A stretch of DNA of 26,579 nucleotides from a virus. The notes beneath the pieces were generated by a model that saw only the letters and a list, made by a program, of their open reading frames with translations, was not told the origin of the DNA and searched no databases. Both the position numbers and the translations under genes were made by a program. The stretch lies in the UHGV virus genome UHGV-1484038. One strand, given 5' to 3'. Shown in pieces: positions 21,932 through 21,955 of the stretch (its first letter is position 1; each line of letters starts with the position of its first letter).

Positions 21932-21955
21932 AGCCGCATACAGCGGCTTTTTTTA
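21932..21955 (+). terminator. Intrinsic terminator after the moron cassette
   Basis: AGCCGC-ATACA-GCGGCT perfect hairpin followed by TTTTTTT, read directly, 20 nt after the stop of moron gene 2. Confidence 0.65.

Follow-up and report, generated by a model that had tools for sequence, protein, structure and literature searches.

What does a strong intrinsic terminator do in the middle of a tail operon, and how does RNA polymerase reach the essential baseplate and fibre genes that follow it? These questions are raised by a hairpin with an adjoining T-run in the viral genome UHGV-1484038, a stretch of 26,579 nucleotides that was analysed over its whole length and is called the window here. The window phage is a lambda-like temperate myovirus and a relative of Salmonella phage SEN34 (Brunovirus), which has the same layout of Q-like gene, hub gene, two small open reading frames, hairpin and spike gene. 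SEN34 has been described as combining a lambda-like genome with myovirus morphology, in a paper that mentions neither terminators nor morons (PMC5261728). The evidence as a whole is best explained if the element at position 21931 is a functional Rho-independent terminator that forms the 3' edge of a slot for accessory genes and is read through with the help of Q. Judging from sequence comparison, we give this reading a probability of about 0.6.

The terminator and its surroundings

The element lies among the following genes and signals of the tail region:

16893-19160, + strand, tape measure gene
19160-19786, + strand, gene for a Dit-like protein
19783-20088, + strand, baseplate plug gene
20091-21152, + strand, baseplate hub gene, left border of the variable slot (GC 0.540)
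21156-21506, + strand, ORF4 (116 aa, phrog_3443, secreted), first and semi-conserved occupant of the slot (GC 0.499)
21526-21912, + strand, ORF5, accessory ('moron') gene for a 128-aa protein with N-terminal signal peptide (GC 0.362)
21931-21949, + strand, terminator hairpin AAGCCGC-ATACA-GCGGCTT with 7 pairs, 5 of them G-C, and a 5-nt loop
21948-21954, + strand, T-run (U-tract) of 7 T directly 3' of the stem
21957-21968, + strand, GGGG ribosome site (21957-21960), TTTTT spacer and ATG of V
21966-22706, + strand, baseplate spike gene V, right border of the slot and first gene 3' of the terminator (GC 0.567)
22706-23059, + strand, W-like wedge gene
23060-24259, + strand, J gene
24256-24936, + strand, DUF2612 gene
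24918-25694, + strand, fibre gene
25694-26299, + strand, fibre assembly gene

The terminator occupies a 53-nt non-coding gap between ORF5 and V (21913-21965) and shares its strand with all late genes. Only three gaps of at least 30 nt interrupt the string of structural genes from 5517 to 26299 (~20 kb), and the one at 21913-21965 harbors its sole canonical terminator. The stretch 21931-21955 reads AAGCCGC ATACA GCGGCTT TTTTT A; A21931-C21937 pair with G21943-T21949, the loop ATACA corresponds to 21938-21942, and the first two T of the T-run can also pair with the AA of the stem. The hairpin alone has a folding energy of -10.8 kcal/mol, with z = -2.4 against shuffled sequence for its 71-nt context. 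In a generic scan of positions 12000-26579 the site ranked top among terminator-like sites on the + strand, and among the window's four + strand terminators it has the best T-tract. Under strict criteria (stem of at least 7 pairs, at least 5 of them G-C, and at least 7 T in 8) it is the sole match on both strands of the whole 26.6-kb window, and zero matches were obtained across 100 dinucleotide shuffles. A loose terminator scan gave no enrichment in number (15 sites found, 16 ± 4 expected from shuffles). Searching the whole window for RNA families of the Rfam type yielded nothing at gathering score; the sub-threshold matches at the site (Trp leader, STnc220 and isrK) scored far below the cut-offs, and all three models end in a terminator. 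The hairpin and T7 tract noted in the first-pass annotation are therefore real, and the coordinates given there (21932-21955) are right within 1 nt (21931-21954). From these sequence features we infer that transcription probably terminates at this site. Elsewhere in the structural region, a GC hairpin (GGCCCC-GAAA-GGGGCC, 12412-12429) is present in the 41-nt gap 3' of the major capsid gene; it is without a T-run on the + strand and looks like the mRNA-stabilising type rather than a terminator.

Both genes upstream of the terminator encode proteins that start with a typical signal peptide. Neither is therefore a part of the tail, and ORF4 and ORF5 look like accessory genes. The ORF4 family, phrog_3443, is of unknown function, whereas ORF5 found no match in Pfam, PHROG or PADLOC; a PADLOC search with ORF4, ORF5 and six cargo representatives gave no match to a defence system. 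The GC content of the whole window is 0.529, and ORF5 (0.362) stands apart from its neighbours (0.50-0.57) in the manner that characterizes morons, while ORF4 (0.499) does not.

Downstream of the terminator lie six genes on the + strand, namely V, the W-like wedge gene, J, the DUF2612 gene, and the fibre and fibre assembly genes. The element had been correctly placed upstream of baseplate and fibre genes in the first-pass annotation, but the number of these genes, given as five, was slightly too low. Two routes to their expression had been put forward there, Q-modified transcription and an internal promoter. An internal promoter between the terminator and V was rejected: the end of the T-run and the ATG of V are 11 nt apart with the GGGG ribosome site in between, the corresponding distance in relatives is 9-19 nt, and a promoter therefore does not fit downstream of the terminator. 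Transcription of V must consequently traverse it.

A scan for the sigma-70 consensus upstream of ORF4 and ORF5 detected no promoter above chance level. The candidates at chance level are TTTATA-17-TATACT inside the hub gene (21025-21053, 9/12) and, at 21491-21496, an isolated TATAAA that lacks a -35 element. As it starts just 19 nt past the end of ORF4, ORF5 may simply be a late gene. Expression of ORF4 and ORF5 in the lysogen, the core of the idea of an insulated moron, would be plausible by analogy with the definition of morons (PMC3594210) and with the ant moron of P22 (PMC2629481).

Late transcription and the Q module

The window begins with genes for RusA, NinH and a Q protein of 207 aa, followed by the elements expected for late transcription in a lambdoid phage:

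690-1313, + strand, Q antiterminator gene of the lambda type (Pfam Antiterm PF03589, 6e-58)
1356-1384, + strand, pR'-like late promoter TTGACT-17-TAAATT, containing the exact lambda qut string TATTGAATAAAATTGGGTAAA (1362-1382)
1416-1443, + strand, tR'-like promoter-proximal terminator with an 11-bp stem (-21.1 kcal/mol), ~30 nt past the -10 element
2014-2031, + strand, second terminator-like hairpin, upstream of the holin gene
3552-3571, + strand, third terminator-like hairpin, between Rz and the HNH/Rha/terminase genes

The Q protein aligns over its full length with lambda Q in PDB entries 7UBM, 7UBN and 4MO1 (E = 2.6e-139), the match to chain Q of 7UBM covering residues 1-207. The string TATTGAATAAAATTGGGTAAA is labelled 'similar to lambda Qut site' in records of related phages, and the order of the Q gene, pR'-qut and tR' is the classical pR'-qut-tR' arrangement. 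All genes for holin, lysozyme, Rz, terminase, portal, capsid, sheath, tube, tape measure, baseplate and fibres follow Q on the + strand. Given this module and the co-oriented genes, read-through with the help of Q is the natural route to the six distal genes. In lambda, Q forms a nozzle on the RNA-exit channel and prevents the formation of terminator hairpins (PMC9388147), a mechanism that would make a terminator 20 kb downstream tolerable. By reference to this established mechanism, it is most likely the lambda-type Q that would let late transcription pass the terminator at 21931.

We propose that RNA polymerase unmodified by Q would halt at the 21931 terminator, before V, the wedge and the fibre genes, and that this stop would cover any lysogen transcription starting in the cargo or upstream of it. 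After induction, the lambda-type Q would load onto polymerase at pR'/qut, ~20.6 kb upstream, and render it resistant to terminator hairpins, so that the modified enzyme could pass tR' and the hairpins at 2014, 3552 and 21931 and transcribe the baseplate and fibre genes. The cargo itself would be swapped by recombination, with a terminator always retained, be it the resident one or one borne by the cargo, as with ORF5 here.

Comparison of Q with the terminator across phages shows how far the two are linked. In SEN34, as in the window, a gene of the Q type is combined with a hairpin that precedes the spike gene. Providencia phage PSTCR3 and Aaphi23 contain Q genes, their hub and V genes overlap and a hairpin is not present. 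Klebsiella phage Mulock has the hairpin before V, yet the gene at its Q position matches no family. A correlation between the presence of Q and that of the terminator, considered with these three phages, was uninformative and was dropped. Since Q is present in the terminator-free PSTCR3 and Aaphi23, it permits a terminator but does not predict it.

Two further regions of the late operon attracted attention. A minus-strand ORF of 138 aa (1489-1905) without family match is located between tR' and the holin gene (1314-2090) and is followed by the + strand hairpin at 2014-2031; together they form one more accessory insertion where the late operon begins. The region 3378-5485 comprises the hairpin at 3552-3571 and then genes for an HNH endonuclease, a Rha-like regulator and a putative metallopeptidase. 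Extending from the lysis genes to the small terminase gene, it is another cargo region within the Q-dependent unit.

The hub-spike slot and its 3' edge in related phages

In E. coli genomes, homology to the window is lost after the hub gene and regained inside the hairpin and T-run. A close relative is the prophage of the natural lysogen E. coli AW1.7 (NZ_CP073624, around 1.949-1.958 Mb), with 97.5% identity over the region. Ten annotated prophages contain differing genes in the interval between hub and V, for example Phd/Doc (ABWA45), a minus-strand DUF4236 gene (I3) and hypothetical genes, and in 10/10 the hairpin and T-run are found right before the conserved 'TTTTTTTATGGGGTTTTT ATG' of V. 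The survey was widened by a V protein search to 80 IMG/VR contigs and 80 GTDB genomes, giving 173 loci from hosts including Escherichia, Citrobacter, Klebsiella, Enterobacter, Salmonella, Serratia, Yersinia, Erwinia, Pantoea and Photorhabdus. A terminator was counted as conserved when a stem of at least 5 pairs with a T-run ended within 45 nt of V. The finder detected such an element in 133/173 loci, a number that rises to ~133-137 when those visible by eye are added; the background, taken on the same strand elsewhere in the same loci, was 0.010 per 45-nt window. Its occurrence follows the architecture of the junction:

cargo, > 130 nt before V: terminator in 111/114 loci
spacer of 31-130 nt without cargo: terminator in 13/15 loci with the strict finder, and by eye in a fourteenth (L154); cargo-free relatives include the Salmonella locus L107 (CP191473, 2,684,296-2,691,048) and the Erwinia loci L156 and L162
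preceding gene (hub or ORF4) abutting or overlapping V: terminator in 0/32 loci

Accordingly, ~97% of the related loci that have a spacer carry the terminator, compared with 1% for the background. The T-runs are 5-9 nt long (mode 7) and end 9-19 nt before the ATG, with modes at 11 and 19 nt. The hairpins differ considerably: 79 distinct combinations of arm and loop occur among relatives, with stem variants including CCCGC/GCGGG, CCAGC/GCTGG, CCTGC/GCAGG, GCCGC/GCGGC and CCACC/GGTGG. In an alignment of 50 sequences, 96% of the cells are paired, a percentage inflated by the choice of the set with the hairpin finder, and 5/7 pairs have changed on both sides; the observed values were matched in 0-1 of 500 shuffles. 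The stem pairing is thus kept through compensatory changes. Two phage records (OM284015.1, MK448230.1), those of Elizabethkingia phage EKP1 and Klebsiella phage ST16-OXA48phi5.2, label the spike gene 'translation initiation factor IF-2'. The DNA of EKP1 is also ~76% identical to this baseplate region of enterobacterial phages, an odd finding given that EKP1 is ascribed to a host from the Bacteroidota.

The cargo of the slot is hyper-variable, with 81 ORF clusters and 61 architectures in 118 cargo-bearing loci, and the slot is empty in at least 13 loci. Recognisable cargo comprises Doc/Fic with Phd, a YafO-type toxin, a tRNA_anti-like OB protein and DUF2335; the majority of cargo genes are unknown, and many encode a signal peptide or lipobox. 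Complete toxin-antitoxin pairs occupy the slot in some prophages (L011, 2146-2966, and also L016, L022, L048 and others), as Phd/Doc or, in other loci, with a YafO-type toxin or an antitoxin of the Phd family. Toxin-antitoxin genes of the Phd/Doc and YafO types belong to the prophage genes that are typically expressed autonomously. Promoter consensus scans for the cargo of L011 and L005 remained at chance level.

The ORF4 family is a semi-conserved occupant, present in 92 loci and always directly following the hub gene. ORF4 abuts V without a terminator in L110, L147, L152 and L160, and some loci, such as L128 and L012, encode a fusion of its C-terminal domain with a lipoprotein-like N-terminal part of ~180 aa. 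ORF4 is a conserved secreted protein in the tail cluster and possibly serves as a superinfection-exclusion factor.

Some loci have in common the non-coding motif CCTGA(C/T)ATTTGATCAGTAACCC, which immediately precedes the hairpin. It includes the inverted repeat CTGAT..ATCAG, is situated within the 40 nt before the hairpin and occurs in L006, L007, L031, L032, L038, L043, L047, L080, L105, L106, L134 and L164; the window does not have it. The motif is kept across at least five genera, while the remaining cargo can barely be aligned, and it may represent part of a 3'-UTR or of a small RNA whose 3' end is the terminator. A small ORF of ~53-70 aa (MVVSDFGIKVSGPYREKLK... / MKTDLVITFGGS...) lies 5' of it; in L006 this arrangement is found at about 2480-2717. 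In SEN34 (L172), a second hairpin with T-run (AAAGCCCCG..CGGGGCTTTTT) is found directly 3' of the spike gene, and a 45-aa ORF, SEN34_23, is inserted between this hairpin and the wedge gene (region 17074-17313). The site looks like a second small cargo slot without counterpart in the window.

To whom, then, does the terminator belong, to the backbone of the phage or to its cargo? The first-pass annotation had tied it to the moron, and for the window's own copy this connection holds. The hairpin variant GCCGC-ATA(C/T)A-GCGGC was seen with ORF5 exclusively, in 6/6 loci, and these are all the surveyed loci in which ORF5 was found; ORF5 thereby has its own terminator, as expected of a moron. The ORF5 cassette extends from ~90 nt upstream of ORF5 through the T-run and is common to Citrobacter phage Omnitron and L128. 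The ORF4 gene upstream of the shared cassette is just 67% identical, such that phages with different ORF4 alleles have the same cassette. As morons by definition carry a terminator of their own (PMC3594210), one might assume that the element has no role in the backbone at all, came with the ORF5 cassette and recurs in relatives as each import brings its own. We consider this unlikely as a general explanation. The hairpin occurs in ~133-137/173 loci and in 13/15 cargo-free ones, and two V clades consist wholly of loci with terminator and without cargo. Identity of V within these clades goes down to 70-74%, and the terminator has therefore long been kept with nothing upstream. Furthermore, one hairpin core, CCGCC-ACCC-GGCGG, adjoins at least 10 different, unrelated cargo clusters, and conversely a single cargo cluster adjoins 10 different hairpins. 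In L005, the + strand hairpin before V is retained beside the minus-strand DUF4236 cargo even though this gene has its own minus-strand terminator.

That terminator (GCCCGCC-TATCT-GGCGGGC, 2102-2120) faces ORF4 and the hub gene and would also block antisense transcription into the tail genes. A function of the hairpin before V as a bidirectional terminator for minus-strand cargo was rejected, as its minus-strand tail is not U-rich and the DUF4236 gene of L005 is served by a separate element.

In our reading, the slot position always holds a terminator, and the window's copy arrived with ORF5. The first-pass interpretation is thus partly supported: its Q-based part has good support in the Q, qut and tR' elements of the window itself, and its reading as a moron terminator needs widening, the element being the conserved 3' edge of the hub-spike slot in a large family of lambda-like myoviruses. 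One may go further and regard the terminator as a backbone element that predates and enables the cargo, a fixed 'docking bay' between hub and spike of a Q-dependent lineage of temperate myoviruses. This extension is tentative and we would not yet bet on it. If true, a gene landing upstream would gain a defined 3' end and could not switch on tail genes in the lysogen, the hyper-variability of the junction across many genera of Enterobacterales would be explained, and the element would still be under selection when free of cargo, for instance against pervasive transcription or for baseplate dosage.

Insulation as the selected function of the terminator is a probable but conditional part of the preferred reading. 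At cargo-free loci there is nothing obvious to insulate, so that insulation is maybe not the sole or main selected role; these loci suggest that there is more to the terminator than the insulation of cargo. This same persistence speaks for an attenuator, at which Q-modified polymerase would partly terminate and keep spike, wedge and fibre mRNA below the levels for head, sheath, tube and hub, and the site indeed marks the boundary between the genes for tube, tape measure and hub and those for spike, wedge and fibres. On the other hand, ~32 relatives express the same genes with overlap of hub and V and no terminator, and hub and spike are both low-copy components, for which a dosage step would not obviously be needed. 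Lambda Q, moreover, is described as precluding the formation of terminator hairpins (PMC9388147), and we regard attenuation as improbable as the main role.

Even less probable is an element that acts on the RNA alone, its hairpin shielding processed upstream mRNA from 3' exonucleases and its U-rich tract boosting translation of V, which is no longer coupled to that of the hub gene. The tight spacing of hairpin and T-run to the ribosome site of V, with its two modes, would fit this proposal, as would the second GC hairpin, which follows the major capsid gene, a location at which stabilising hairpins are often found. However, a T-run of 5-9 follows the stem immediately in essentially every locus. 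Such a run is the signature of termination, and a stabilising hairpin can do without it; the capsid-gene hairpin demonstrates the non-terminator form in the window phage itself. Partial attenuation, RNA stabilisation and a U-rich translational enhancer for V may be minor roles of the terminator. A chance hairpin or non-functional recombination scar, with which the count of the loose scan would agree, is effectively refuted by the single strict match in the window against none in the shuffles, by the excess over background in spacer-bearing loci and by the compensatory changes in the stem.

Relation to known systems

Moron terminators and read-through by Q are textbook knowledge, and the site is a clear but largely ordinary example of a known phage design. 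A moron is defined by its own promoter and its own terminator, and the first example in a tail operon was gene 15 of HK97 (PMC3594210). The resemblance to that case is close: an accessory gene in the tail operon of a lambdoid phage is followed by a factor-independent terminator, its GC content is off that of its neighbours (0.362 for ORF5 against ~0.53) and it is absent from related phages, the late operon is controlled by Q, and the product is small and targeted to the envelope, as indicated here by the signal peptides of ORF4 and ORF5. In contrast to HK97 gene 15, the promoter search for ORF4 and ORF5 of the window found none, the insert resides between hub and spike genes instead of chaperone and tape measure genes, and the window's family keeps the terminator whatever the cargo, even without any.

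The ant moron (immI) of P22, located between gene 16 and the tailspike gene 9, is likewise a single variable slot in the morphogenetic part of a Q-type late operon (PMC2629481). It lies just upstream of host-recognition genes, its gene sets vary and are missing altogether from some relatives, and late transcription must cross it to reach the distal tail gene. P22 differs as a type of phage and in the junction that is used, its slot has the regulators mnt, arc and sar of its own, and a terminator conserved family-wide at the edge of the slot is not described (PMC2629481). With lambda, the window shares a full-length Q, an exact qut and a promoter-proximal terminator; the lambda system was characterised at tR' (PMC9388147), while read-through at 21931 would be an extension of the same activity to a distant site. 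A parallel outside phages is Tn916, in which a terminator on a mobile element keeps unwanted transcription out of genes that have to be silent and is overridden by antitermination upon activation (PMC11658703). Tn916 is, however, an unrelated element with an unrelated antitermination mechanism, and its terminator guards the end of the element against read-in from the host, whereas that of the window is placed inside an operon, at a cargo slot.

What appears to be new is the fixity of the terminator throughout the family, empty slots included, a modest comparative observation drawn from the surveyed genomes. That it persists where the slot is empty is the single feature lacking a trivial explanation. 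The locus provides a clean comparative example that lambdoid phages can carry strong terminators within essential operons: Q antitermination would make such a terminator transparent in the lytic cycle, and accessory genes can be walled off in the lysogen. The succession of hub gene, cargo, hairpin with T-run and spike gene furthermore constitutes a recognisable signature, by which the slot may be mined in hundreds of enterobacterial prophages for toxin-antitoxin pairs and for many secreted proteins of unknown function.
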